Shown here: piece after piece, positions 20,449-63,891 of the stretch
Position numbering within the stretch: the first letter of the stretch is position 1
Layout of the letters: each line of letters opens with the position of its first letter
Assembly: GCA_013204395.1 (NCBI GenBank)
Contig: JABMNZ010000003.1
Span: forward strand, 13,570-77,569
Length of the DNA stretch: 64,000 bases
DNA from: Parcubacteria group bacterium
Lineage (GTDB): Bacteria > Patescibacteriota > Patescibacteriia > UBA9934 > GWF2-40-263
Direction: 5' to 3'
Notes under the pieces: generated by a model
Told to the model about the DNA's origin: nothing
What the model saw: the letters and a program-made list of their open reading frames with translations, nothing else
The model's database searches: none
Translations under genes and position numbers: made by a program

Positions 20449-20722
20449 GAACTTATTATAACAAAGGCTACCAGCAAGGCCCAGGCCAAGGTGCAAAAAA
20501 CCTAGGCGGGTCGGAAGCTTAGCTTCCGACATTGCGACTTTATTTCAAATAATCAGCTTAAAACAAAAATCATGCATTCAATGCACGATTCGTGACTCAA
20601 CCCAGTATCAATTGTTGCATTCAATGCACAGGTTGGTCAGCAGGTTTGTACAGATTTTTGCGACGTTGTTTCATTGACATGACCTCTCTCCTATGGCTTA
20701 CTTCCCTCGGAATGGAGAAAAG

Positions 20723-22162
20723 ATGAAACCCAACCCAAGAGACCGAGCCTTCCTCATGGCCCTGGATTCGATGAATGATCCCCACCTCCCGTGGGGACTG
20801 CGATTCTCCATTTTGCAGGACGATATTCCGGAAGGATACTTCGTCCGAAATGGTCACAGCGAATTCATGCGCCATTTCTGGGCAACGCTCTCACTCGCAC
20901 TCCCTGGCTCTGCACTGGAAATGCGTCTATTTGAGAAGCTCTCGCTGCCAAACATGGGTGCAGTTCCAACCTGGATCTCCGTGTGCGGACCCACGAGCTG
21001 GCCGGTGTTCTGGGTACACGTCATCCTGCGCAGCGATGCGCGGGGAGGAATTCACACCCTGGCCGTGCAGCGTCTACGCACCGTGACCGGAGGTACCGCC
21101 GAGCTTTGCACCGCCGCAACAGAACTCGCCAGACAAGACGGCAACGAGCAGCTCGTCGCACGACTGCGCACTGAGGCCATAGAAGTCGCAACAGACTGGT
21201 GGGAATGGAAGTTGATCATCGGCATGGAAACGGACGTGAGCGCGGATGCCCGCGTCAAAGCCCTCCAGCAACTTCGAGAGCTTCCAGTGGAGCGTGACGG
21301 GCTCGAACCATCCCTCAGCACAGCCGATCCAGAAGTCAGGCTGATCGTGATCGATCGTCTGCTCGAGACCTTCCCCGAGCGACCGGACCTCTGGCGGAGG
21401 CGATTCCTGACGGTTAGTCCGCCTGATGAACGCTACCAATGCTGGATCAAGTTCCTGTCGGTGACCCCCCCAGCCCATGAGCTGACAACCGTTCTGTTCC
21501 ACGTCTGGAACAACAAGCCAGAGCGCGCACGGTGCCTGGAGGCCATCGAACACCTCGATGCACAATGCCCTGCGTGGATCTATGCGCACTCTGCCAGCTA
21601 CGGAGCGCCCCACGATGACCCCAAGCTTCACTCCATCAGAGAGGTGATCTGGCAACGGATCTTCGCCACGGCACAGTCCTGCCATGACTGGTGCCAGTTG
21701 ACCAGGTTCATGAGAAGGCGCCACGAACAAGGCCACCCTCTCGTGAACGAAGCTTTCGAGAAGGCCCTAGATCTGGCCGAAAACTTCGAAGAGCTCTCGG
21801 ACGTGTACAGCCTCTGCCTGCATGAAGTGGCAGATGGCCATCATCGGCGAACCGAACACGACCCAGCGCGCGCACAGGTCATCCAAGGACTCCTTGTTCG
21901 GATGGAAGAGATTGGAGCCTTTTGGGACTACTGGAACGGACATCATCTACTGATGTCCGACAGGCTCTCCAGGATCGTTTGCTTGGCCAGCACCCCGTCA
22001 CAGATGGGGTTGGTCTACAACAGGCACTTCCAACTGCCTTACCAACGTGATGACAATCGAGAGCTCTACGACGAGCTTCTGCGACGCATGCACGCTGCTG
22101 GGCCCTCGTTGGTCACCAGCTTCCTTCCCAAACCAGCAACCGAGGCTCAACCCCGAACCTAA
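20723..22162 (+). CDS. Orphan all-helical (HEAT/TPR-like) hypothetical protein
   Basis: Long GC-richer ORF; GGAG SD before ATG 20723; TTGACA at 20674; Trp-containing helical repeats. Confidence 0.7.
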   Translation: MKPNPRDRAFLMALDSMNDPHLPWGLRFSILQDDIPEGYFVRNGHSEFMRHFWATLSLALPGSALEMRLFEKLSLPNMGAVPTWISVCGPTSWPVFWVHVILRSDARGGIHTLAVQRLRTVTGGTAELCTAATELARQDGNEQLVARLRTEAIEVATDWWEWKLIIGMETDVSADARVKALQQLRELPVERDGLEPSLSTADPEVRLIVIDRLLETFPERPDLWRRRFLTVSPPDERYQCWIKFLSVTPPAHELTTVLFHVWNNKPERARCLEAIEHLDAQCPAWIYAHSASYGAPHDDPKLHSIREVIWQRIFATAQSCHDWCQLTRFMRRRHEQGHPLVNEAFEKALDLAENFEELSDVYSLCLHEVADGHHRRTEHDPARAQVIQGLLVRMEEIGAFWDYWNGHHLLMSDRLSRIVCLASTPSQMGLVYNRHFQLPYQRDDNRELYDELLRRMHAAGPSLVTSFLPKPATEAQPRT

Positions 22163-50229: not shown

Positions 50230-53200
50230 TTAGCCCTGTTCTTCTTTTTGTTCTACTTCAGCTTCTGTTTTTGATTCTGGTTTTGGTTCTGGCCAATTGA
50301 TTTTTCCATCCTTTTTTGTCCAGACAACTACACAACCATGCCCCCCGTGCTTATCCCATACTTTGTAACCATTGAAGTTTGTGTCAGGCGTGTTCTCTAA
50401 GCTACGTTTTGGGTTCTGAAAAAAGAGATTGCCATAGACTTCTGTAACCCCACTTCGATTTGAAGATGACTGAGTGACACCATCAAGTGGGACAAGAACC
50501 TCATCTATCCCTCGACGCTTGGCTGTTTCGATCGCCTTTTCAAGCGACTGAAGGGTAAAAGAAACGTTATCAACGGACTGGATCAAATTCTCACGCGGAT
50601 TATTTGCCCGTACAATTAGCGCTGAATCATCTGTTCCCTGAACCTTACTCTCAACAAACAATGCCGATCCAGCAAAACGTTCCTGAGGAGTTCCACGCCC
50701 AAGCACATACGTAAATGCTTTCACGCCAGGATAATCTCCCCTGGCAAGTTCAGTGTGTCTTGAGGACGTACAAGCATCCCCTGTGTCACCACTCATAATT
50801 CTTGGGAGCCCTTGTCCCGGCACCATAGCAACGCTTATCGTATCGGTTTTTGAAACAGATTTCGGCCCACTTAGCTTTTCCATTGCCATAAGTGTGGAAA
50901 CGAAAGCATTTTTCTCAGCCCCCTTACCGACCCCCCAAGCCTTCTGCAGTGCCACAATAAGCTCCTTTGAAAATGGCTCATGTCCTGTCTGATGATCCGC
51001 TTGTTCTGGATGCAAATAATGCTCCAGTAGATACTGTTGAATAAAGTTAGCAGCCTTATTTACATACACCCCAGGGTCAAGCGACCTATCTGCAAGTTCA
51101 GCACCATAATCATAGTCAACTATTTGACGTACATGACGAGCACTCAGTCTCTGCATTAATCGATTGAACACCTCCCCTTTTCCTCCTGTGGCCGCAAGGT
51201 TCTCCATGATCTCTATTGAATCAGGTGAAGCACCTTGATTTTCAATTACCTCGGATAAAGTATCCAGCCCTTTGTTCATTGCATCAAGAACCTTAACCTT
51301 TGCCTCTATTCCCTTTACTTGACCAGCGACAATATTATGCTTTTTCTCAAGACCCTTTCGTTGCTCGTCAGCATTTTGACCATCAAGTTCCGCCATCTGA
51401 GAAGCCACCTCTTCAACAACAGCATTGAGCGTCGCCATTTTATCCTCAAGAAAAGATTGCTGTTCTCTTGAGGCAGATCCTAATTCCAATAAAAGTTTAC
51501 CTGATGGTTCATCAACAAATCCCTGATCCCCCTCATCCCATTGAAAGCTCTCTGTCATTCCAGAAAAAGCCTCTTTAAACAACTGTTTCCCGATCAGCTT
51601 TTCTATATCTCTTTTTTCTTTATCCAGCTTGTCTTCAGACCCTGGTTCCGTACGCTTCCGAACAGCAACCTCAATCACTTCTTCTTGATACCCCCCTGCA
51701 AGCTTAGCAAGCTCTGGTTTTTCCAAACGAGTTTTCTCCCAAACGCCTATCACGTACCCCAACTGACCCGTTGCCACAAATTGCCCTCCCCCCGTCGCTG
51801 CCGCAAAAATCTCTTGACCAAGTTCTGTTTTGAGTTGCCCCGGAACCTCATCCTTCAGGAACCCTTCAATAGAAGCTCTACGGACTTCCCGTAGCTCATG
51901 AAGGAGTTGTGCTGGTGTAAGCTGATCTGCACGAGCAAATTGATAAGCCTCTTTCACAAAATCTTGATCGTCTTCCCCAAGATCAGCAAAATCAACCTTC
52001 CCTCGAGGAGCAAATTGTTCCTCACCCACTTTCACCCCATCTGTTTCTCTCGGAGCAATAAGATCCATGGCTTTTTCTGGCACACCTTTTAGACCCCCAG
52101 TCCAAACGTTTCCAGATTTTGTCGCACGAGAAAATGCGCGTTTTAAAAGTTTATGCGATGGAAGCTGCTGATCAACACCCATAGCTTCAACAAGAATTTT
52201 CTGATGTTCGGTGGACAAATCTGCCAATCCACCACCTCGAGATAATCCAATAAAGATCTCGGCGAGATTTTGAGCATTGATCATTCCATATTCAGCAACA
52301 AACTTTGCAAGCAATTCACCATCCTCAGCAGATTCATAAGACAATAAACCTTCATTTTTCAATGTTTTAACTAACGGTTCTAGATCCGTTTTCCAGGGAT
52401 CATGTGCCTCATTGGCCGTGTGACCCTGCATCACTTCAAGTTTTTTCAATGCCCCACCCCATGGTATGTGCTCAGCCAATCGACCATCGGCACCCGCATA
52501 ACTTTCAAGTTCTAGTAACGTCGGGTTGTCTCTCGTCAATAATTTCCCAATAGACACCCAGTCAGGATCAACTTCTGTATATTCCCGAATTCTATCAATG
52601 TTACTCTTCTGTCGGTCGGACGGTTTTTTAAATGTTGAAGCGTATCCAAGTTGAACGGATTCATCACTAAAGTTTTTCTCAAACCCACCAACCGAGTCAG
52701 CAAAAACAATAACCTTGATCGGATTTACCTCTATCATCGTTTTCATCATCAACGAACTGACCGACTCAGCCAACTCAAGAGATCCTTCTTTACCGTTGTT
52801 TGCAAGAAAGGCAGAAAAGAACTTCTCAGGATTCAACAAGAGGAGCTTTTTCTGAAACTCATCCTTATCGACACTCTCTGACTCATAGAATTTAAAATCT
52901 GCTCTGAAGAACAAATCGAATGGTAATGAATCTTTACCAATCTTCTCCAAAACTTTTGACTGCTCAGCTTCCGTTAATTTCAAACCAGTCTCTGTGGCGA
53001 AAATAGCTGCATAGTGATCTTGCGAAATTACTTCAGCAACTAATTTTTCACGCTCATCAGGCTCAAGTTCTTCTGCCAAATCACCAAACCCAGGAAAGTT
53101 TCTATAAAAACTAATGTCTTCTGAGCGCCCTGGGGCATAGGTAAGAAGAGGTTTTCGATCCTTTTTCTGAACCATGAACAACGCTTGCCTAATCTGGTTG

Positions 53201-54618
53201 TACTCCTGTGAAGAGCGAAACTCATCATTGCTCGGGAGCTTTCCTAACTCAACCTGTTTCAATAAACCTGTTCGCAGCTCAGTCCGTGAAAGCATGGTCT
53301 TCACAAAATGCAATAGTTCCTCAGGGGTCTTCTCTACAACCCCATTATCATTCACCCATCTTAATTCCGGAACATCTACTAAAAGCAGTTCTCGAAAAGT
53401 TGTTTCCATGTTCGCAAACTCCTCTTGATTATATAAACCAGTTGGAACCTCGGGATGCAGCTGGCTATAGTAATCTGCTGCTCGCGATCCCGCTTCGCGA
53501 AAAAGGCTATGAGATAATCGAGAACAGACTTTTGAAAAACCTGGGATGTCATCTGGAAGAGATTTGATGTAATCTTTTGCCTTTTTATAATCAAGGACCT
53601 CTATCTTTTTCTCATCATAATCGCTTAGAGTCTCAGCTGCGTATTCTTCGAACAATGCCAATACTTTTTCCTCAAGCTCTTTCATTAACAACCCCTTTTC
53701 TTGTTTTCCTTTATGTTGCTCCTCAACATCCATGGACTTACTTGACTCAAACGCTGCCACAACATCTCCATCACGAACCAATTTTCTTGCACGTCCCACC
53801 TCAACACGGTTTGCAAACTGATCTCTAAAGTGCTTTCGGTAATTCACTTTTTCATAGTTCGACGCTAGAAATCTTTCATGTAATTGCAAGGCGGTTTCAG
53901 GATCAACGTTCAAAAACGCCTCTGAAGCACGTTCAAGAAAACTTTGTTTATCTCGGATCAAGTGATCATCCTCATGATCGCCGACCATTTCATCGATACG
54001 TGTCATGATATCCAAGGCCTTCACCGGATCTTTTTCCAAAAGCAAAAACCTTCTTGAATATGCATCTCGTGCAACAGCTACACCCTCACCCAACTCAGCA
54101 ACACTCTCTTCTGACACAACTCGCCTTCTGAGAAAATCTATCCCCTTCTCAGAATCATCAAGAAGCATTCTCGGAGCAATGTCCCTAGCCATCCACTGTA
54201 AAGCGGATGCCATATTCTCCTCTGGAGTATGTTGGTCCGTCCACCCACTCACATCCGTTTGCTCCTCATAGAATCTAAACGCCTCCTCTTCATCTTCAAC
54301 AGCAAGTTGTCCGATGGCTTCACACTTCACATTATGACGTAACCAGATTGGAAACTTTTCAAGATCTGAAAATGCTTCCCGAGGAAACTCTCGAATAAAG
54401 GTCCTCACTCCAGCTATGGCATTTTTTACATCCGATGAATCATACAAATCCGGATCCAAAGAATCATCATCTGGATAGTGTTCTGGGTCTCTATTTTTAA
54501 TGACATCTAAAGCAGAGAAGATTGCTCTGGATCTCAACTCAAACTTCTGAGCACGCTCAGCAGCCTTTTCTCTAGGTGATAATTCTTCGACTTGTGAACC
54601 TTCTCGACGCTCAACCAT
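50230..54618 (-). CDS. Very large acidic orphan protein (1462 aa)
   Basis: Uninterrupted 4.4 kb ORF; helical/coiled-coil composition; no recognised domain. Confidence 0.85.
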   Translation of the reverse strand: MVERREGSQVEELSPREKAAERAQKFELRSRAIFSALDVIKNRDPEHYPDDDSLDPDLYDSSDVKNAIAGVRTFIREFPREAFSDLEKFPIWLRHNVKCEAIGQLAVEDEEEAFRFYEEQTDVSGWTDQHTPEENMASALQWMARDIAPRMLLDDSEKGIDFLRRRVVSEESVAELGEGVAVARDAYSRRFLLLEKDPVKALDIMTRIDEMVGDHEDDHLIRDKQSFLERASEAFLNVDPETALQLHERFLASNYEKVNYRKHFRDQFANRVEVGRARKLVRDGDVVAAFESSKSMDVEEQHKGKQEKGLLMKELEEKVLALFEEYAAETLSDYDEKKIEVLDYKKAKDYIKSLPDDIPGFSKVCSRLSHSLFREAGSRAADYYSQLHPEVPTGLYNQEEFANMETTFRELLLVDVPELRWVNDNGVVEKTPEELLHFVKTMLSRTELRTGLLKQVELGKLPSNDEFRSSQEYNQIRQALFMVQKKDRKPLLTYAPGRSEDISFYRNFPGFGDLAEELEPDEREKLVAEVISQDHYAAIFATETGLKLTEAEQSKVLEKIGKDSLPFDLFFRADFKFYESESVDKDEFQKKLLLLNPEKFFSAFLANNGKEGSLELAESVSSLMMKTMIEVNPIKVIVFADSVGGFEKNFSDESVQLGYASTFKKPSDRQKSNIDRIREYTEVDPDWVSIGKLLTRDNPTLLELESYAGADGRLAEHIPWGGALKKLEVMQGHTANEAHDPWKTDLEPLVKTLKNEGLLSYESAEDGELLAKFVAEYGMINAQNLAEIFIGLSRGGGLADLSTEHQKILVEAMGVDQQLPSHKLLKRAFSRATKSGNVWTGGLKGVPEKAMDLIAPRETDGVKVGEEQFAPRGKVDFADLGEDDQDFVKEAYQFARADQLTPAQLLHELREVRRASIEGFLKDEVPGQLKTELGQEIFAAATGGGQFVATGQLGYVIGVWEKTRLEKPELAKLAGGYQEEVIEVAVRKRTEPGSEDKLDKEKRDIEKLIGKQLFKEAFSGMTESFQWDEGDQGFVDEPSGKLLLELGSASREQQSFLEDKMATLNAVVEEVASQMAELDGQNADEQRKGLEKKHNIVAGQVKGIEAKVKVLDAMNKGLDTLSEVIENQGASPDSIEIMENLAATGGKGEVFNRLMQRLSARHVRQIVDYDYGAELADRSLDPGVYVNKAANFIQQYLLEHYLHPEQADHQTGHEPFSKELIVALQKAWGVGKGAEKNAFVSTLMAMEKLSGPKSVSKTDTISVAMVPGQGLPRIMSGDTGDACTSSRHTELARGDYPGVKAFTYVLGRGTPQERFAGSALFVESKVQGTDDSALIVRANNPRENLIQSVDNVSFTLQSLEKAIETAKRRGIDEVLVPLDGVTQSSSNRSGVTEVYGNLFFQNPKRSLENTPDTNFNGYKVWDKHGGHGCVVVWTKKDGKINWPEPKPESKTEAEVEQKEEQG

Positions 54619-56151: not shown

Positions 56152-57174
56152 CTACTTAATAAACATCGCATCTCCAAAGGAGAAAAAGCGATACTTCTGC
56201 TCGACAGCCTGACGATACGCACTCAAGACATACTCTCGTCCAGCAAAGCTACTCACTAAAACAAGAAGTGTTGATTTTGGTAGATGAAAGTTTGTGATAA
56301 GTGCATCGATAATCTTGAAATCGAAACCTGGAGTGATAAATAAGTTCACATCGCCAGAGAACCCAGCTTCTGGAATCGATCCCCCATGTGCCGCTGCAAC
56401 ACCCTCGAGGGTACGCACTGTTGTTGTCCCAACAGCAATCACTCTATGTCCGTCTTTTTTCGCAACATTAATCCGCTGAGCAACCCCAGGTGCAATCGTC
56501 ACGTACTCGGCGTGCATCTTGTGTTCTTCTAATGTGTCAGTCTTTACAGGCCTGAACGTTCCTATTCCCACATGAAGGGTCACGTACTCTATCTCCACCC
56601 CATTAGCACGAATCTTTTTAAGCAACTCTTCAGTAAAATGGAAACCTGCTGTGGGCGCAGCAACGGAACCTGTCTCTTGGGCATAGACCGTCTGATACTG
56701 ATCGAGACTTTCCGGCACCTGATCAACATACGGTGGAATAGGAATCTCTCCGTGCTGGTTAGCAAAGTCAATAATTTCTTGATCAGACTTATCGAATCTT
56801 ACAGAAGCAACATCTGACTTACCTACCACCACCCCCTTAAGGACCTCAATCTCAATCGTGTCGCCAACATTCACATGACGCCCGGGTCGAATCAACACAT
56901 CCCAGAGACCGTCGCGTGGCCGCAAAAGAAACACTTCTATCTCCTTACTCCTAACAAGTCCTCGCAGGCGAGCTCTAAAGACTTTTGTGTTGTTCATCAC
57001 AAGCAGGTCTCCTTCTTTAATCTCATCGATTATCTGATCGAAACGTTTTTCCCCCAAAGATCCAGTCTCTCTGTCTAAAATCATTAGACGTGAATGGTCA
57101 CGTGGATGGGCCGAATACTGAGCTATTAGCTCCTGTGGCAGATTGTAGTCGAATAAATCAATTGAGTTGCTCAT
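56152..57174 (-). CDS. queA: S-adenosylmethionine:tRNA ribosyltransferase-isomerase
   Basis: FDYNLP, PIPPY, YQTVYA, GSVAAPTAG, TNFHLPKSTL, FFSFGDAM; start trimmed to 57174. Confidence 0.96.
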   Translation of the reverse strand: MSNSIDLFDYNLPQELIAQYSAHPRDHSRLMILDRETGSLGEKRFDQIIDEIKEGDLLVMNNTKVFRARLRGLVRSKEIEVFLLRPRDGLWDVLIRPGRHVNVGDTIEIEVLKGVVVGKSDVASVRFDKSDQEIIDFANQHGEIPIPPYVDQVPESLDQYQTVYAQETGSVAAPTAGFHFTEELLKKIRANGVEIEYVTLHVGIGTFRPVKTDTLEEHKMHAEYVTIAPGVAQRINVAKKDGHRVIAVGTTTVRTLEGVAAAHGGSIPEAGFSGDVNLFITPGFDFKIIDALITNFHLPKSTLLVLVSSFAGREYVLSAYRQAVEQKYRFFSFGDAMFIK

Positions 57175-57294
57175 ATCTTTCCCATTCTGCCTGAGGCTTA
57201 AGTAATTGACAAAACACGGCCTCATTGCTATTCTCCCCGCGAATTAATTGTACGTATCGGAAGTCCCTTTAGGCGACCAGAGCGTGCTAAATCT

Positions 57295-57588
57295 ATGAAA
57301 AAAGCCATTCACCCAGACTATTACACAACATCCAAAATATCTTGCGCCTGCGGCAATAAGCTTGAAATCGGATCAACTCTAGAAGCGATCTCCATTGAGC
57401 TATGCTCTAAGTGTCATCCTTTCTATACAGGAAAGCAGAAGATCATCGATACCGCACGTCGTGTTGAGAAATTCGAAGCCCGAACTTCTAAGAAGGCTTC
57501 TGAAATCACAGGGAAGAAAGCCAAGAGTGCAAAACGTTCTGCACAAAAAGTTGCAAAACGCGAAGAGGCAGAGAAAGCCGACGCATAA
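57295..57588 (+). CDS. rpmE: 50S ribosomal protein L31
   Basis: [25 protein letters not shown]. Confidence 0.96.
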
Positions 57589-57627
57589 CTGGTATAATGA
57601 AAAGCGTTCTCACGAACGCTTTTTTGT

Positions 57628-58701
57628 ATGAACCTACTTGAACAACTACAGGCCCATAAGGACCGCCTACAAGATCTTGAATCCAAACTGAATTCTTCAG
57701 ACGTTCTTTCTGATCCAAGAAAAATTCGAGAAGTGAACGAGCAGTACGCAGCCGAGCGAGACATCATAGAGGTGGGCAGTCGATATGAGAGTGTCGTAAA
57801 AAATCTAGACAGTGCCCGCACTACACTGAGTGAAACCTCTGAAGAGGAAATGAAAGAGCTCGCTCAAGGTGAAATAGATGAACTGGAAGTATCCCTGCCA
57901 ATTTTAGAACAAGAATTTACGGTCGCATTGATTCCACTGGATCCAATGGACAATAAAAGTATTATCGTTGAAATCCGTGCTGGTGCAGGTGGAGACGAGT
58001 CTTCCCTTTTTGCAGCAGAACTCATGCGCAGTTACAGTATTTACGCTGAAGTGCAGGGATGGAAAACAGAATTGATTTCAGCAAGTCGCACCGACGTTGG
58101 TGGATTCAAAGAAGTTATCTTCACAATAAAAGGAACCGGTGCGTACAGCGCACTTAAATACGAAAGTGGAGTCCATCGCGTGCAACGCGTTCCTGAAACT
58201 GAGAAACAAGGACGTGTCCACACTTCCACAGTTACTGTTGCCATCATGCCAGAGGTGGAAGAAGTTGACGTTCAGATAGATCCAAAAGATTTGATCATTG
58301 AAGCAACCACATCCACAGGTGCGGGTGGACAAAGTGTAAACACCACCTACAGCGCGGTGCGTATCACCCACACGCCAAGTGGCATCATGGTCTACTGCCA
58401 GGAAGAACGCTCACAGAAGCAAAATAAAGAGCGTGCCTTAGGTATTATTCGAGCGCGCGTGTACGCCATGGAGCAAGAAAAAGCACGTAAAGAAAGGGAA
58501 GATGAGCGCCGTGGCCAGATTGGTACCGGAGACAGATCTGAAAAGATACGGACCTATAACTTCCCTCAAGACCGAGTCACTGATCACAGAATCAACCAAA
58601 ACTTCCACAACCTCCCGGGGGTTATGAGTGGTAGTCTTGATGAAATAATTACCGCACTAAAGTCCGAGGAAATAGAACAAAGACTTAAGGAGCTTGGCTA
58701 A
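57628..58701 (+). CDS. prfA: Peptide chain release factor 1
   Basis: EIRAGAGGDE, HRVQRVPET (PxT), GAGGQ, RSEKIRTYN. Confidence 0.97.
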   Translation: MNLLEQLQAHKDRLQDLESKLNSSDVLSDPRKIREVNEQYAAERDIIEVGSRYESVVKNLDSARTTLSETSEEEMKELAQGEIDELEVSLPILEQEFTVALIPLDPMDNKSIIVEIRAGAGGDESSLFAAELMRSYSIYAEVQGWKTELISASRTDVGGFKEVIFTIKGTGAYSALKYESGVHRVQRVPETEKQGRVHTSTVTVAIMPEVEEVDVQIDPKDLIIEATTSTGAGGQSVNTTYSAVRITHTPSGIMVYCQEERSQKQNKERALGIIRARVYAMEQEKARKEREDERRGQIGTGDRSEKIRTYNFPQDRVTDHRINQNFHNLPGVMSGSLDEIITALKSEEIEQRLKELG

Positions 58702-58702
58702 T

Positions 58703-59374
58703 ATGCAGGCAGTCATACTCGCTGCGGGCAAAGGCGCACGCCTGCGTCCCGTTACATACACCACCCCCAAACCTCTCATTGATCTGTGTGGAAAGCCACT
58801 CATCGAGCATGTGCTCAGCGCACTGCCAAAAAGGATCGATGAGATTTTTGTTGTCGTAAACCACTTGCGAGATCAGATCATCGAGCGCTTGGGAGAAAAC
58901 TGGAACGGGGTGCCGATCAAGTACGTCGATCAAGAACCTCTCTCTGGTACAGCGGGTGCCGTGCATCTTCTCAAGAATCATCTGAGGGGGTCTTTCCTCG
59001 TCGTTAACTCTGACGACATTTACCAAGCTGAGGACCTTGCTCGTTTGGTAGAACACCCTATGGCCATGCTCTTCCAAAAGTCCGACTCTGAAAAAAAGTC
59101 CGGTGCGCTTGTTAGTAATGGTCGGTTCACAGGTCTTGGTTTAGGAAACAACGCTGTGTGCGGCGCGTACGTGCTGGACCAGAGCTTTTTTTCAATCGAG
59201 CCCGTTGAAATTCACGTGAGTGAGTTCATTGAACTTGGCTTACCACAAACACTTGCCGTGCTCGCCACAAGCGAAACAATCGCCGCTGAGCCCGCAACAT
59301 CCTGGATCCCTGTGGGGAATCCAGAGCAACTTGCGCAAGCTATCCACCGGATTTCTGGACAAGTCTGTGGATAA
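58703..59374 (+). CDS. Sugar-phosphate nucleotidyltransferase
   Basis: AVILAAGKGARLRP...PKPL, QEPLSGTAGA; start trimmed to ATG 58703. Confidence 0.9.
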   Translation: MQAVILAAGKGARLRPVTYTTPKPLIDLCGKPLIEHVLSALPKRIDEIFVVVNHLRDQIIERLGENWNGVPIKYVDQEPLSGTAGAVHLLKNHLRGSFLVVNSDDIYQAEDLARLVEHPMAMLFQKSDSEKKSGALVSNGRFTGLGLGNNAVCGAYVLDQSFFSIEPVEIHVSEFIELGLPQTLAVLATSETIAAEPATSWIPVGNPEQLAQAIHRISGQVCG

Positions 59375-59423
59375 CATTGGGTCAAAAAGATAAAACCTAG
59401 AAAAAATGGGCGTGCGGTGGCCC

Positions 59424-59451
59424 TTGACACATTTTTTCTAGAGAGTATCGT
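59424..59451 (+). promoter_or_regulatory. Putative sigma70 promoter of the large ncRNA
   Basis: TTGACA (59424-59429), 16 nt, TATCGT. Confidence 0.55.
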
Positions 59452-59452
59452 A

Positions 59453-60608
59453 GTCGTTACCGCTGACTGAACGGAACACCTGATTTAAGAGAACGGGCTT
59501 GCCCGGTCCCTGACGTCGAGTGTGACAATCAGACAGAACAGCAGTGAACAGTTGGATGAGGAACCTCGGTTCCATTGATCCTCTGGAAGGCGCCGAGACC
59601 TCGGTTAGACGCGCTCTCCTCAACCACTTCGGTGGATCTGTAAACTGTGCACCCGTAGCAAAAGGACGTTGAAGTGAAGCTTGCTTCACAAAAACTCTGT
59701 TAAAAAGACTGCAAAGACTTCGGTCCCAAACAGACACTGTAACCAGTACAACCGCAAGGTTGGTCCAGTAGCTGCAAACCGTCACGGATGAAAGTATCGG
59801 CTTGCCGAGACTGGATGAAGTGACAGATCGATAGATCGTTGAGGCATGCTACGGCGTGCCAGATGGCCATCACAACTTCCAGAACAACGAACTGGTTAAC
59901 AGTACGGAAGTGAAAAAGGTATAGATCTCGAGGCCTCGGCCAATTGATCCAGCTCTGCCAGAGCATGAAAAAAACCTTTGAGATGGAGAGCCAAGCAAGT
60001 GAGTCCTTCTGGGCAAGCAAGCTATGGTGCAACGATCTATTGATCAGACGAGGAAGAACTGGGTAATACCAGAACTGAATCGTCACCCTCCCCTGTAGAT
60101 CCAGGAATACTGGCTGAGTCCAAAAGTCGGCGAAAGTCGGACTGAAACTCTTCTACAGGAACCTGTGAACAACTCGATGATTTGAAGTGACTAATGGGGA
60201 AACCTGGATGTCTAACCACTCAGACCAGACCTTCGGGAATGGAATGAAAGGTCAACTGATCTGAAATGAGTGTTGTGCCTACCACAATTGGCAAAGCAGT
60301 TCATGGGAGCGACGGAGTTGGTGAGGTGTTTGAAAACGAGAAGAGGCATCCTTCGGGAAGTCAGACACTCGCTACGAGCGCCTTGCCACTCCGGCGTTGA
60401 GGAGGAATCCTTCGGGGTTCCAAAACACCGAGACTATCCGCAAGGAGAAACCTCACCCAACCGGAAGAGGTTGCCACGCAACCCGATCCACGTCGCCGCT
60501 TCACAGCAGCGACAACGCTTAGTCCAAATCCCAAGTGCGACCCCCCCCGCACTCAAGACAAGGACAACGCCGGACCATCAGCTCATAGAGCCTGGTCCGT
60601 TTTCTTTT
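59453..60608 (+). ncRNA. Candidate giant structured non-coding RNA (about 1.15 kb), class unassigned
   Basis: No credible ORF; many UUCG/CUUG/GNRA/UACG-capped hairpins on the + strand; long-range helices; 5' and 3' ends complementary; upstream promoter and downstream terminator. Confidence 0.8.
60571..60608 (+). terminator. Intrinsic terminator closing the ncRNA
   Basis: CGGACCA...TGGTCCG followed by TTTTCTTTT. Confidence 0.75.
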
Positions 60609-60644
60609 AGACAACTTTTACTTTTGTCTGCTACTGTTCGTTTC

Positions 60645-61556
60645 ATGACAATCATGGAGGCTCTACAATGGGCCAATAACAAGTTAAAAAAGGCTGGTGT
60701 AGATTCTCCAATGCTGGACGCTGAGATACTGCTGGCACATACCCTGGGCGAAAGTAAAGCCTGGTTGTTTTCACATTTTAGCGACAAGTTAAAAATTCAT
60801 CACCGCGAACAGTTCCATGAACTTATAGACAGAAGGACCGCTCGAGAACCAGTGGCATACATCACCGGAAAAAAAGCCTTCTACGGCCGAGACTTTCAAG
60901 TAAACGCGATGGTGCTAATTCCCCGCCCTGAAACCGAAACGATGGTTGAGGTTTCTTTAAAAATACTCGAAGGCCATGACCCTGAAAGAACACTTGTGTG
61001 CGATATAGGGACAGGGTCAGGAGCGTTAGCGGTGACACTGGCGGCAGAAACATCCCTGTCCGTTATTGCTATCGACGTGGACAAGCAGGCCCTAAGTGTC
61101 GCTAGCCAGAACGCTACTCAACTGGGCGTCTCAGACAATATCGATTTTCAACATGGTTCTCTCGCAGAACCTCTCATTCGTATTTTTAAAACAATCCGCG
61201 GGCAGACAAAGGTAAAAACCTCATCGGTCTACCCTTTTAAACATCTTCTCATCACAGCAAACCTCCCCTACCTTCCAGATAGCCGATTAGAGTCCACACA
61301 GCCAGAAGTACACGCCTACGAGCCTCATTTAGCCCTTGTGGCGGGTCGTGATGGCCTGGACGCGTACTTTGATCTATTTAGACAACTAAGAACCAACAGG
61401 ACCATCCTCCCCCGCCGCGTGACCGTACTCATTGAAATAGACCCCGAACAACGCCGTGGCGCCGAGAGTCTAATAGAACATGCCTTCCCAACTGCAAAGA
61501 TGAATGTACACAAGGACCTACAGGGCCTAGACCGAGTGATCGAGGTTGAGGTGTAA
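60645..61556 (+). CDS. prmC: Release factor glutamine methyltransferase
   Basis: LDAEILL, EPVAYITG, LIPRPETE, DIGTGSG, NLPY; start trimmed to ATG 60645. Confidence 0.94.
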   Translation: MTIMEALQWANNKLKKAGVDSPMLDAEILLAHTLGESKAWLFSHFSDKLKIHHREQFHELIDRRTAREPVAYITGKKAFYGRDFQVNAMVLIPRPETETMVEVSLKILEGHDPERTLVCDIGTGSGALAVTLAAETSLSVIAIDVDKQALSVASQNATQLGVSDNIDFQHGSLAEPLIRIFKTIRGQTKVKTSSVYPFKHLLITANLPYLPDSRLESTQPEVHAYEPHLALVAGRDGLDAYFDLFRQLRTNRTILPRRVTVLIEIDPEQRRGAESLIEHAFPTAKMNVHKDLQGLDRVIEVEV

Positions 61557-61558
61557 AC

Positions 61559-61587
61559 AAAAAACCGTCCACGTGGACGGTTTTTTT
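61559..61587. terminator. Bidirectional intrinsic terminator
   Basis: AAAAAACCGTCCACGTGGACGGTTTTTTT between convergent genes. Confidence 0.8.
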
Positions 61588-61596
61588 ATTTTGTTT

Positions 61597-62685
61597 CTAT
61601 TCTATCTCAATAGATTCTTCACTAGGCACCACTTCGATCCATGTCACACCAGCATTCATAACAACCTCTTCTTCTCCCACATAGAACCGCAGTCGCTCTG
61701 ATGCGCTTGGTTTGCGCCACTCAACTTCTATCACCAACCCATCTTGTAGAACATATCCATCCCCCACTCCAGTCGTGCGGATCTTACGCCTACCAACGCC
61801 ATCAATAACAGATACGTCTGTTATTACAACGGCAACGTTATCAGCCTCAATGCGGGCAGCTTCATCCGTCACATGTGGTGAATCGAACTGCCATCTTTCA
61901 TACCGTCCACTTTCTGAGTTGTACTCCCAATCAACGGAATAGACCGGTGGGTTAAAATCGATACGAATATTTGATGTGGAATCAGTTGGCTCTGGATCTT
62001 TAAAGTTCCACAGTCCGTACAAACGCTCTGGAGCTACACCACTTTCTTCACGTAATGCAGAAAAGGTTGAAAGGCTCTCGGTGTCGACATAGACGTTATG
62101 TGGGGCATAACGGTCCGTTGAACGCCAGAAATAACTCCCCCACCAATATTGATTGAAATCAAACGTGCTCCCAGAGGCAATCAAGTCTAGCGCGGCATTT
62201 GAACCACCCACATGGGTATACAGAGCGTCTAGCTCATTGTTCCAATCCAAGTAATACGGACGAGCTGATCGCACAGGACCAATCTTCTCAATCTCTTGAC
62301 CTTCGTAAAAGAATGCAAGCATCCTTGAAATACCAGCCTCAACAGGAGCCTCTACAACCAAGAACGCCTCATCGACCCCAGACGGTGGCCACGCATCCTC
62401 GTGGTTGTCGATCATTACACCGTAGACACCCAAAAATCCTTCAACTTCTTCGTACACACTCACACCTGTAAGAGGATGCCTATAAGTAGTTTCTAAAACA
62501 TCTCCCCCATCAGCATCAGATGTTTTCTCAATAGCTCTGTAAACAAAATCTGGAAGCACTAATGCAACAAGTACACCCAACACAATTACAACCAGAAGAC
62601 CGACTGACATTTGCCAGTCGGTCTTCTTAAAGCGTTTTATAAAACGCTTTGTCTTTTTAATTTCCTCCTTATTTGATTGTGACAT
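61597..62685 (-). CDS. DUF3048 domain protein
   Basis: PLTG, VMIDN, GPVRSARPY, APHNVY. Confidence 0.88.
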   Translation of the reverse strand: MSQSNKEEIKKTKRFIKRFKKTDWQMSVGLLVVIVLGVLVALVLPDFVYRAIEKTSDADGGDVLETTYRHPLTGVSVYEEVEGFLGVYGVMIDNHEDAWPPSGVDEAFLVVEAPVEAGISRMLAFFYEGQEIEKIGPVRSARPYYLDWNNELDALYTHVGGSNAALDLIASGSTFDFNQYWWGSYFWRSTDRYAPHNVYVDTESLSTFSALREESGVAPERLYGLWNFKDPEPTDSTSNIRIDFNPPVYSVDWEYNSESGRYERWQFDSPHVTDEAARIEADNVAVVITDVSVIDGVGRRKIRTTGVGDGYVLQDGLVIEVEWRKPSASERLRFYVGEEEVVMNAGVTWIEVVPSEESIEIE

Positions 62686-62687
62686 GA

Positions 62688-63374
62688 CTATTCAGCTTTC
62701 TTCTCCTCACCTTCAGCTGGAGCCTCACCTTCAGCGGCAGCCTCACCTTCAGCTGGAGCCTCACCTTCCGTAGGTGCTTCTCCTTCAGCTTCGTCCAATG
62801 CAGCCATTTCAGCTACGGTCCGCGGCTTACTTACACTAACGATAGTTAGATTTGTGTCGCCAACTATCTCCATCCCTTCTGGCAAGTCTAGATTTACTAA
62901 ACGGATTACGTCATCAAATGTGGCAAGCTGTGTCAGATCCACATTAATAGATCGCACCAACTTTGATGGAAGTGCTCGTACCAATACCGTCTCTCGTGAA
63001 TTCATAAGAGTTCCACCGAGGGTCTTCACAGCAGCAGCTTCACCGACAAACTCAAGGGTAACAACAGCCTCAATAGGCTTGTTCATATCTACAGATCTAA
63101 AATCTATATGAATCACCTCATCACGAAGCGGATCAAGATCGTAGTCGTGGATCAGAACATTAAGAGGTTTTGCATCTGCGACCGAAAGCTCAATAATTGA
63201 ACTCTCACCAGCCGCTCGATAGACCTTAATAAATTCCTGGCGATTAACAGATATGCTCTGTGGATCAGTTCCATCACCATAAACCACAGCTGGGACAAGA
63301 CCTTCAGCACGAATAACATTCGTTTTTCGGCCCTTTTGAGTACGTGTTTGTGCTTGTAGAGTAATTTCAGACAT
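62688..63374 (-). CDS. rplY: 50S ribosomal protein L25/Ctc
   Basis: VPAVVYG, HIDF, acidic EGEAPA tail. Confidence 0.95.
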   Translation of the reverse strand: MSEITLQAQTRTQKGRKTNVIRAEGLVPAVVYGDGTDPQSISVNRQEFIKVYRAAGESSIIELSVADAKPLNVLIHDYDLDPLRDEVIHIDFRSVDMNKPIEAVVTLEFVGEAAAVKTLGGTLMNSRETVLVRALPSKLVRSINVDLTQLATFDDVIRLVNLDLPEGMEIVGDTNLTIVSVSKPRTVAEMAALDEAEGEAPTEGEAPAEGEAAAEGEAPAEGEEKKAE

Positions 63375-63480: not shown

Positions 63481-63891
63481 CTAGCACGTCTTTTTATTCT
63501 TCTTAGTTTCCCTCAAACGTTTCCTCATTACTTTTGAAAGTTGTTCCCGATAAACCCTTCCAAGTTCTTCTTCCCATCCAGATGATTCAATCCACCGGTG
63601 AACCTCAATGACATCATCGAGTTCAATGGCCTTTTCTGAACGGAATCTTAAAACATCCTCATATGATAGGTCGGTCAAAAGCCCAACGGAACTCGCACCA
63701 ACTTGATTAACAAGTACCAGAGCCAGAATGGAGCTCATGCATTTACGACACTTGACGTGTAACAATTGTGTCTGCCCTTGCTCACCAAGCATGCGCGCCT
63801 CCATTGAATTGTAGCGCGTTTCACACACCGGACAAAAAGAGACTAGCTTGAGACCTTCATTCCACCGATTAGAACCTTTTGTTGATGACAT
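63481..63891 (-). CDS. Hypothetical zinc-ribbon protein
   Basis: CPVC...HVKCRKC, GLLTDLS. Confidence 0.75.
   Translation of the reverse strand: MSSTKGSNRWNEGLKLVSFCPVCETRYNSMEARMLGEQGQTQLLHVKCRKCMSSILALVLVNQVGASSVGLLTDLSYEDVLRFRSEKAIELDDVIEVHRWIESSGWEEELGRVYREQLSKVMRKRLRETKKNKKTC

Follow-up and report, generated by a model that had tools for sequence, protein, structure and literature searches.

The 64,000-nucleotide stretch of DNA from a Parcubacteria group bacterium (contig JABMNZ010000003.1 of assembly GCA_013204395.1; hereafter, the window) almost certainly contains a genuine non-coding RNA gene at positions 59459–60606 of the plus strand. The gene, approximately 1,148 nt long, is flanked by an NTP-transferase gene and prmC, with rpmE and prfA further upstream. 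A first-pass annotation had proposed a new or highly expanded class of large structured RNA at this site. The proposal of a new, very large class is supported by the lack of a matching Rfam family, a homologue with compensated helices, contigs from RNA libraries, and synteny in 19 of 29 genera; as for its size, the RNA is very large, but the copy in the window is mid-sized for a class spanning 518–1,721 nt. Three features absent from that annotation were a phased DnaA-type box at 59366–59374, a 3′ four-way junction, and what appears to be repeated loss of the gene. The landmarks of the locus are listed below.

57628–58701, plus strand: prfA (release factor 1; Pfam PCRF and RF-1), the upstream landmark
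58703–59374, plus strand: NTP-transferase gene (Pfam PF00483)
59366–59374, no strand assigned: DnaA-type box TGTGGATAA, which shares bases with the stop codon of the NTP-transferase gene; it lies 49 bp upstream of the −35 element, on the helical grid of the family
59424–59451, plus strand: sigma-70-type promoter TTGACA-16-TATCGT, with the same layout at 49 loci
59459–60606, plus strand: large structured non-coding RNA, about 1,148 nt, with a predicted start at A59459 (ACC), 7 nt past the −10 hexamer
59463–59536, plus strand: 5′ local stem-loop P1 with an inner CUUG hairpin (predicted p ≥ 0.95); homologues also have local 5′ hairpins
59665–59788, plus strand: 124-nt expansion module with several tetraloop hairpins, absent from the same-genus genome G001
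59826–60045, plus strand: multibranched domain closed by the 16-bp helix 59826–59841/60030–60045; divergence near neutral, fold retained
60087–60402, plus strand: 3′ four-way junction core (predicted fold; helices B and C in the consensus fold of genus g6)
Junction helices: closing, 60087–60090/60399–60402; A, 60092–60099/60152–60159; B, 60162–60170/60299–60307 (with internal loop); C, 60308–60332/60375–60398
60571–60608, plus strand: predicted intrinsic terminator hairpin and U-tract, also in G001
60629–60637, plus strand: extended −10 element TGCTACTGT, 7 nt before the prmC ATG, with similar elements before prmC in other RNA-bearing genomes
60645–61556, plus strand: prmC (release-factor methyltransferase; Pfam PrmC_N and methyltransferase), the downstream landmark

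The NTP-transferase gene is not tied to the RNA, being present in genomes that lack it and absent beside some of its copies. Judging from the extended −10 element, prmC likely has its own leaderless promoter.

Limits, Coding Content and Predicted Fold

The RNA had originally been bounded by TTGACA at 59424 and a terminator at 60571–60608. Both elements are there, but the former is a −35 element, which moves the likely start to 59459. The terminator hairpin (60571–60599) with its U-tract is predicted with p 0.93 and recurs, with changes, in G001; a simple terminator scanner called no terminator for it. The absence of a credible gene was borne out, as three tested ORFs had no Pfam match and their frames are interrupted by 1-nt indels in close variants (59885 and 60322) and by a 124-nt gap in G001; the protein-coding reading of 59459–60606 is thereby ruled out. 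The accompanying description of the genome as gap-free was overstated: a crude count, rRNA included, gives 17 stretches of at least 900 nt without an ORF of at least 150 codons. Elsewhere in the window, a 1,462-aa protein (50230–54618, minus strand) and a 136-aa Cys-containing protein (63481–63891, minus strand) also have no Pfam match.

The first 1,000 nt fold with a z-score of −7.1 against 20 shuffles. With six shuffles each, the whole RNA reaches −6.2 on the plus strand and its reverse strand −1.8, while gene controls give −1.2 for prfA, +1.1 for prmC and −3.9 for the NTP-transferase gene, the last uncomfortably low for this comparison. Hairpins with stable tetraloops number 15, versus 2.8 in shuffles, and all ten that had been claimed were found in place. 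Among the claimed long-range helices, 59826–59841/60030–60045 (16 bp, one G-U), 59764–59769/59810–59815 and 60092–60099/60152–60159 are each predicted with p ≥ 0.95. A helix closing the 5′ and 3′ ends (59453–59465/60504–60513) found no support: six of its 5′ bases lie upstream of A59459, the 5′ end forms a local hairpin, and 60509–60513 pairs locally with 60492–60496 in both this genome (G000) and G001, so that both ends fold locally. Two further helices, 60317–60327/60450–60461 and 60309–60316/60487–60496, stand as real complementarity, partly kept in G001, but compete with the stronger helix C (−34.2 versus −23.5 kcal/mol for the tail pairing), which is the family-wide one. The 3′ tail (60450–60496) thus offers the purine strand of helix C (60309–60327) an alternative, weaker pairing, a possible switch or strand-swap site. 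Kissing-loop palindromes were not retained in G001 and were dropped.

Conservation and Presence in RNA Libraries

The same-genus genome G001 carries the RNA unit at the same location and keeps its hairpins through compensatory changes. Identity between the two genomes is 33–40% at four-fold degenerate sites of three flanking genes, 59% in the RNA (40–78% by segment) and 88% in RNase P RNA; selection thus acts on the RNA, more weakly than on the ribozyme. In a joint fold, which with two sequences is descriptive, 43 of 191 pairs are altered on both sides, including pairs in the CUUG hairpins at 59494 and 59797 and in the hairpin at 60404. The comparison shows selection on RNA structure. It also exposes one large difference, in that G000 holds the 124-nt module (59665–59788) and G001 does not.

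Contigs from RNA libraries (four runs from three studies, out of eight listed RNA runs) span 59460–60378 at about 95% identity to the window. One starts at 59460, a weak hint in favour of the predicted start at 59459. The gene is likely transcribed; this is likely rather than shown because one run was flagged as probably DNA and the contigs give neither strand nor level. They are equally silent on ends, DNA carry-over is possible, and among the eight runs the studies of two were flagged as probably DNA or a small share. The contigs end at 60322–60378, inside helix C, and these positions were not taken as the 3′ end of the RNA. No long contig of this organism was found in the four runs for prfA, prmC, rpsB, tsf or rpmE. 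Such missing coverage would fit an RNA far more abundant than the mRNAs, but the runs were picked via this stretch and so provide no evidence of level.

The letters of the library variants are mixed evidence on structure. The pair A59717G and T59724C is a clean compensatory change in the GAC-UUCG-GUC hairpin, and two loop changes preserve the GNRA and UNCG classes. In a close variant, 20 of the 39 listed substitutions fall on predicted pairs (51% versus a 59% background); eight of these keep the pair, one is compensated in an alternative hairpin and 11 break the pair.

Distribution Across the Family

The region upstream of prmC was drawn from 73 genomes of the family, of which 68 were assessable (G009, G023, G079, G081 and G093 were left out). 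The RNA unit precedes prmC in 48 of the 68 (45 recognised by pattern, three by eye), representing 19 of 29 genera; 14 genomes are empty at this site (8–207 bp) and six hold something else. Elsewhere in the order, 19 genomes from other families could be assessed, and in none is the unit present at the prmC site. An all-genome pattern scan gave at least 120 matches, and among the matches listed the titles suggest chance matches in unrelated taxa. Four metagenome loci join the set.

The anatomy common to the family comprises a DnaA-type box, a sigma-70 promoter, an AC start, a folded RNA and a terminator. The AC start was part of the pattern by which loci were picked, and its invariance is not independent evidence. 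The lengths of 518–1,721 nt run to prmC for the four RNAs without a called terminator. Among the 46 of 49 RNAs for which folding was scored, 38 have z ≤ −4 and eight fold weakly (z above −4, two near 0). Sequence clusters largely track host genera, each genome has one copy, and two members contain internal duplications, of 53 and 67 nt.

Within genus g17 the unit occurs in two of nine genomes. Four empty g17 genomes that are 96–100% complete gave no blastn match to the RNA, although the control matched, and all seven empty ones were negative with a covariance model. On a PrmC tree (a quick version with 46 rows and 15 of 42 inner branches open), nine gain or loss changes are needed, at least four of them forced. 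Because it is absent from 14 of 68 assessable genomes, the gene looks dispensable, and its patchiness is most simply read as repeated loss of an ancestral gene.

Other elements occupy or adjoin the same site. Five loci (L024, L026, L027, L032 and L099) have non-coding inserts of 450–640 nt before prmC with a promoter but no box, no ACC start and no Rfam match; these are possibly a different element or degenerate copies. One genome, G066, has a 305-aa ORF there (L139:2016–2933), which by its motifs we take to resemble a retron-type reverse transcriptase. In genus g9, tRNA genes follow the RNA in two loci only (L162 and L173), and one of these has an anticodon loop enlarged by an unusually long insertion (about 25 nt).

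A Shared 3′ Junction

By eye and with a descriptor, a four-way junction is recognised at the 3′ end of many members, with a pyrimidine-rich tail and then the terminator after it. Its closing helix is (U)CC/GG(A), and three more complete it: helix A; helix B, which contains two C-G pairs and an internal loop rich in A; and helix C, one strand of which is purine-rich (GGAG). Helix B may resemble the 11-nt tetraloop receptor. The lower stem of helix C varies on both sides across genera (AACG/CGUU, AGCG/CGUU, AGUG/CACU and AAUG/CAUU), and a consensus fold of genus g6 recovers helices B and C, with 22 of 178 pairs changed on both sides. Few bases are invariant across genera. No clear junction is visible in genera g25 and g2.

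Across genera, the statistical backing for the junction is weak. A first descriptor was too permissive; the one retained matched 16 of 52 members versus 12 of 156 shuffles, a circular comparison, having been written from these sequences. RNAalifold returned no structure from a 19-member alignment of helix C that was out of register. A covariance model built from 12 members recovers its training set and links only its source genera (g1, g6, g17 and g29); outside that set it gives two weak matches at the expected helix (E 0.03–0.04), compared with E 0.0095 for a chance match outside any RNA, and it misses genera g8, g24, g4, g9 and g25. For the missed genera, homology is weakly suggested by synteny, promoter layout, faint nhmmer links and helices seen by eye. 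Around the core that many members share, the periphery expands freely.

Promoter and DnaA-Type Box

TTGACA-16-TATCGT is the only promoter-like site in 59300–60700. Since shuffles yield 0.9 such sites, the promoter alone is no evidence; it carries weight through conservation. The accompanying box, TTATCCACA, is what we take to be the DnaA consensus. Of 49 loci, 43 have a perfect box no more than 90 bp from the −35 element and 48 have one when a single mismatch is allowed, whereas genome-wide in G000 a box is near five of 190 promoter-like sites, one of the five being the RNA locus. Distances from box to −35 element cluster at 8, 16–17, 27, 37–39 and 48–49 bp in one orientation and at 8–9, 17–20 and 28–30 bp in the other. 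In either orientation the distances thus fall at whole helical turns (Rayleigh p 1e-8 for 28 distinct combinations of genus, orientation and distance; median p 3e-5 with one value per genus). Such phasing would be the signature of a factor bound on one face of the DNA relative to the polymerase.

In G000, boxes also stand 16 bp before the promoter of mraZ and 8 bp before that of an ATP-cone gene, probably ribonucleotide reductase. None was found in the 300 nt before the five RNase P and four tmRNA genes of relatives that were checked. A class-wide sample of 401 genomes yielded 17 independent boxed promoters in the same phase, a weaker signal (p 0.008), which drive rRNA, groES-groEL, rpoB, tRNA and other structured RNAs (genes named from sequence; L296–L315). 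These phased boxes suggest a general activator role across the class, and because of the genes they precede, the box may mark strong promoters instead of replication timing. An origin of replication was rejected, with dnaA on contig C27, a negative skew along nearly all of C19, and one perfect box only.

DnaA regulates promoters such as that of Escherichia coli nrdAB. Promoters of this type share with the prmC-locus unit a DnaA-type box upstream of a sigma-70 promoter; the unit differs in driving a kilobase non-coding RNA and in having a single box on a grid of 10.2–10.5 bp that extends over up to five turns.

Several other loci show a comparable arrangement. In another family, L147 (G055, contig C61) and L148 (G051, contig C7) combine a boxed promoter (6 bp, in phase) and an ACCG start with a folded RNA of about 0.9–1.05 kb, located elsewhere in the genome, whose ends appear to pair and which is a candidate look-alike of the prmC-locus RNA. 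G069, which has the prmC-locus RNA, carries a second boxed unit on contig C83 (L172; 16 bp, ACCG start, about 640 nt). Three loci from class-level genomes (L300, L303 and L304) have a phased box, an ACC start and 380–750 nt of folded non-coding sequence without an Rfam match, and are possibly further new non-coding RNAs.

Comparison with Known RNAs

The first-pass annotation saw no hallmarks of rRNA, RNase P, tmRNA or introns, and the Rfam search it called for agrees, with no credible match at E ≤ 10 over 57000–63000. RNase P RNA was rejected, as a normal one lies on contig C14 (158 bits) and one occurs in four of four relatives. tmRNA was rejected as well: RNA-bearing G001, G006 and G030 have full tmRNA beside smpB elsewhere, and the region lacks a tRNA-like domain; the G000 assembly contains neither tmRNA nor smpB. 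ARAGORN called a permuted tmRNA at 20774–21381 (minus strand) of the window, inside a 494-codon plus-strand ORF without a Pfam match (20678–22159), and this call is probably false. A group I or II intron is contradicted by the lack of an Rfam core match, by intact flanking genes, and by the RNA's own promoter and terminator. SRP RNA was rejected with RF00169 in none of five genomes and the Ffh M domain in none of five (controls, 14 of 14), and Y RNA with Ro60 (TROVE) in none of five (controls, two of 14). A Shine-Dalgarno mimic formed by the GGAG/CUCC helix was dropped, SD-like 4-mers preceding only 109 of 708 ORFs and no conserved ORF following the helix.

In style, the family resembles the ornate orphan RNAs, and it fails every membership test run. 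Twenty loci searched at the Rfam gathering score and 20 at E ≤ 1 gave no match to GOLLD, ROOL or OLE. A phage context of the kind expected for GOLLD or ROOL was not seen: viral contigs (two pattern scans) and phage records (blastn) gave no match to the RNA, and there is no tRNA in the window. According to the available sections of a recent study, GOLLD, called the largest ornate class with many members above 800 nt, is conserved in its 3′ region, less so in its 5′ region, and forms cages; A-minor and kissing contacts hold the GOLLD and ROOL cages together, and the linkers of both RNAs are variable (PMC12286853). On that description, GOLLD and the prmC-locus RNA are alike in being very large and ornate, with a conserved 3′ and a variable 5′ part, tetraloops and A-rich junctions (PMC12286853). 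GOLLD is found in phages near tRNA islands, whereas the prmC-locus RNA is chromosomal and single-copy between prfA and prmC, has a phased DnaA-type box and no Rfam match, and reaches a greater length, 1,721 nt. Moreover, GOLLD cages have been seen, while the prmC-locus RNA is known here from its sequence and predicted folds. ROOL is similarly large and complex, with a variable linker and, in the sections available, no known protein partner (PMC12286853); the prmC-locus RNA differs in lacking an Rfam match, in its absence from the phage collections searched, in having many members two to three times longer, and in that pseudoknots, a feature of ROOL, are not established for it.

OLE RNA (about 600 nt; PMC12054373) is also a large chromosomal RNA with its own expression and a conserved gene neighbourhood. 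The prmC-locus RNA has no Rfam match to it and is far less conserved in sequence and length. The raiA motif RNA, of about 200 nt, is likewise a single-locus orphan with multiway, including four-way, junctions, in the portion of the report available (PMC12968392); relative to it, the prmC-locus RNA has no Rfam match and is three to eight times longer (1,148 nt here). Two candidate partners were considered, and neither presence pattern is informative on the RNA. The CNNM/DUF21-domain gene, which we take to represent the OapA family of OLE partners, does not track it, lying on another contig in G000, not being found in RNA-bearing G017 and G075, and being present in RNA-lacking G036 and G072. Proteins of the KhpA/B type, reported to bind raiA RNA (PMC12968392), are near universal (71 of 73 family genomes) and do not track it either.

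Possible Functions

We place moderate confidence, no greater, in the reading that this is a non-catalytic scaffold RNA, coupled to DnaA, that works like GOLLD and ROOL and belongs to neither. A single-copy chromosomal gene would give rise to a folded non-coding RNA of 1,148 nt, likely from its own promoter. DnaA at the helically phased box would likely switch that promoter on, tying output to growth and replication. By analogy with GOLLD and ROOL, the RNA would likely pack as a compact or multimeric particle. The 3′ junction, with its invariant-looking GG flanks, GGAG strand and A-rich loop on two C-G pairs, may form the functional surface that docks tetraloops or a protein partner, and peripheral stem-loops would be added by insertion and duplication, with bulk and stability mattering more than sequence. 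The small constrained core, free periphery, A-rich junctions and abundance of GNRA and UNCG caps are consistent with a structural scaffold, and conservation well below that of RNase P disfavours catalysis. Cage geometry, however, would usually need a constant size, and the three-fold range in length strains a cage reading. More tentatively, the scaffold may represent a new class of RNA machine on the kilobase scale, may self-assemble through a small junction core that tolerates a three-fold change in size, up to 1.7 kb, and may be kept in genomes without SRP or purine synthesis because it stores or sequesters something across host-attached and free phases.

An RNA that binds RNA polymerase or a sigma factor in place of 6S RNA, with a small binding core and neutral expansions, is an unlikely alternative on present evidence. 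The model for it is Ms1, the actinobacterial counterpart to 6S RNA. The syntenic position, rapid divergence, and own promoter and terminator of the prmC-locus RNA all fit, and the 6S model found nothing in five genomes; as the model is insensitive (controls, five of 14), its silence means little. The predicted fold is multibranched with unpaired ends, not a rod with a central bubble, and in the absence of a model match as well 6S RNA itself was rejected. Absence from 14 of 68 genomes also counts against a replacement for 6S.

Quite unlikely is a nucleotide and phosphate reserve, that is, a nuclease-resistant polymer made on a DnaA growth signal and degraded in the host-free phase. PurC was found in none of five genomes (controls, 14 of 14), the central part of the RNA has kept its fold although its sequence has diverged almost neutrally, the RNA lengthens by duplication, and the box recurs before the putative ribonucleotide reductase gene. 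Against storage, sequence constraint on the core and the 5′ end exceeds what it would need, G036 lacks both PurC and the RNA, and rRNA could already serve this purpose.

Two explanations carry little probability. The first is a ribozyme or enzyme RNA in which, as in RNase P, a variable periphery surrounds a conserved catalytic junction. The conserved junction with its A-rich internal loop and the variable surroundings are what it would predict, but 59% identity (RNase P RNA reaches 88% between G000 and G001), the small number of bases invariant from genus to genus, apparent dispensability, and the lack of an Rfam ribozyme or intron match argue otherwise. The second, similarly improbable, is insertion between prfA and prmC of a mobile RNA cassette, either selfish or domesticated, or of an intron remnant. 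It would account for the patchiness within g17, the forced gains or losses on the PrmC tree, the other inserts at the site in relatives, and the look-alike units elsewhere in G051, G055 and G069. Empty junctions, however, differ among themselves and reveal no evident target duplication or shared scar; no terminal repeats of the unit were seen, no transposase, nuclease or reverse transcriptase lies beside this copy, and the single copy per genome, clustering by host genus and lack of viral or phage matches fit poorly with mobility.

A giant leader or attenuator regulating prmC is highly improbable: the RNA invariably sits immediately before prmC in the same orientation, and the pairing between the helix C strand and the tail is partly kept in G001, but prmC has its own extended −10 element, and the terminator is clear of the alternative helices, with no antiterminator seen.

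Significance for the Family

In the literature searched, which left most subscription papers outside, no published description of the prmC-locus RNA was found. The main text of the Minerva preprint (10.64898/2026.09.22.753630), in the form available, does not mention Patescibacteria, CPR or prmC; its supplements might list the RNA. Apart from rRNA and introns, bacteria very rarely have non-coding RNAs longer than 800 nt, and the present family reaches 1,721 nt. The genomes are about 1 Mb in size; SRP RNA and Ffh were undetected in the five genomes searched for each (among G000, G001, G002, G006, G017 and G036; Ffh controls, 14 of 14). Retention of so large an RNA in such genomes, which appear to be without SRP and purine synthesis, is surprising. 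The 49 variants form a natural series from 518 to 1,721 nt that bears on what a minimal core needs and on the generality of cage formation, a question that the available sections of PMC12286853 leave open. Sister genomes with and without the gene offer a ready comparison, and the phased DnaA-type box provides a first handle on when the RNA may be produced.
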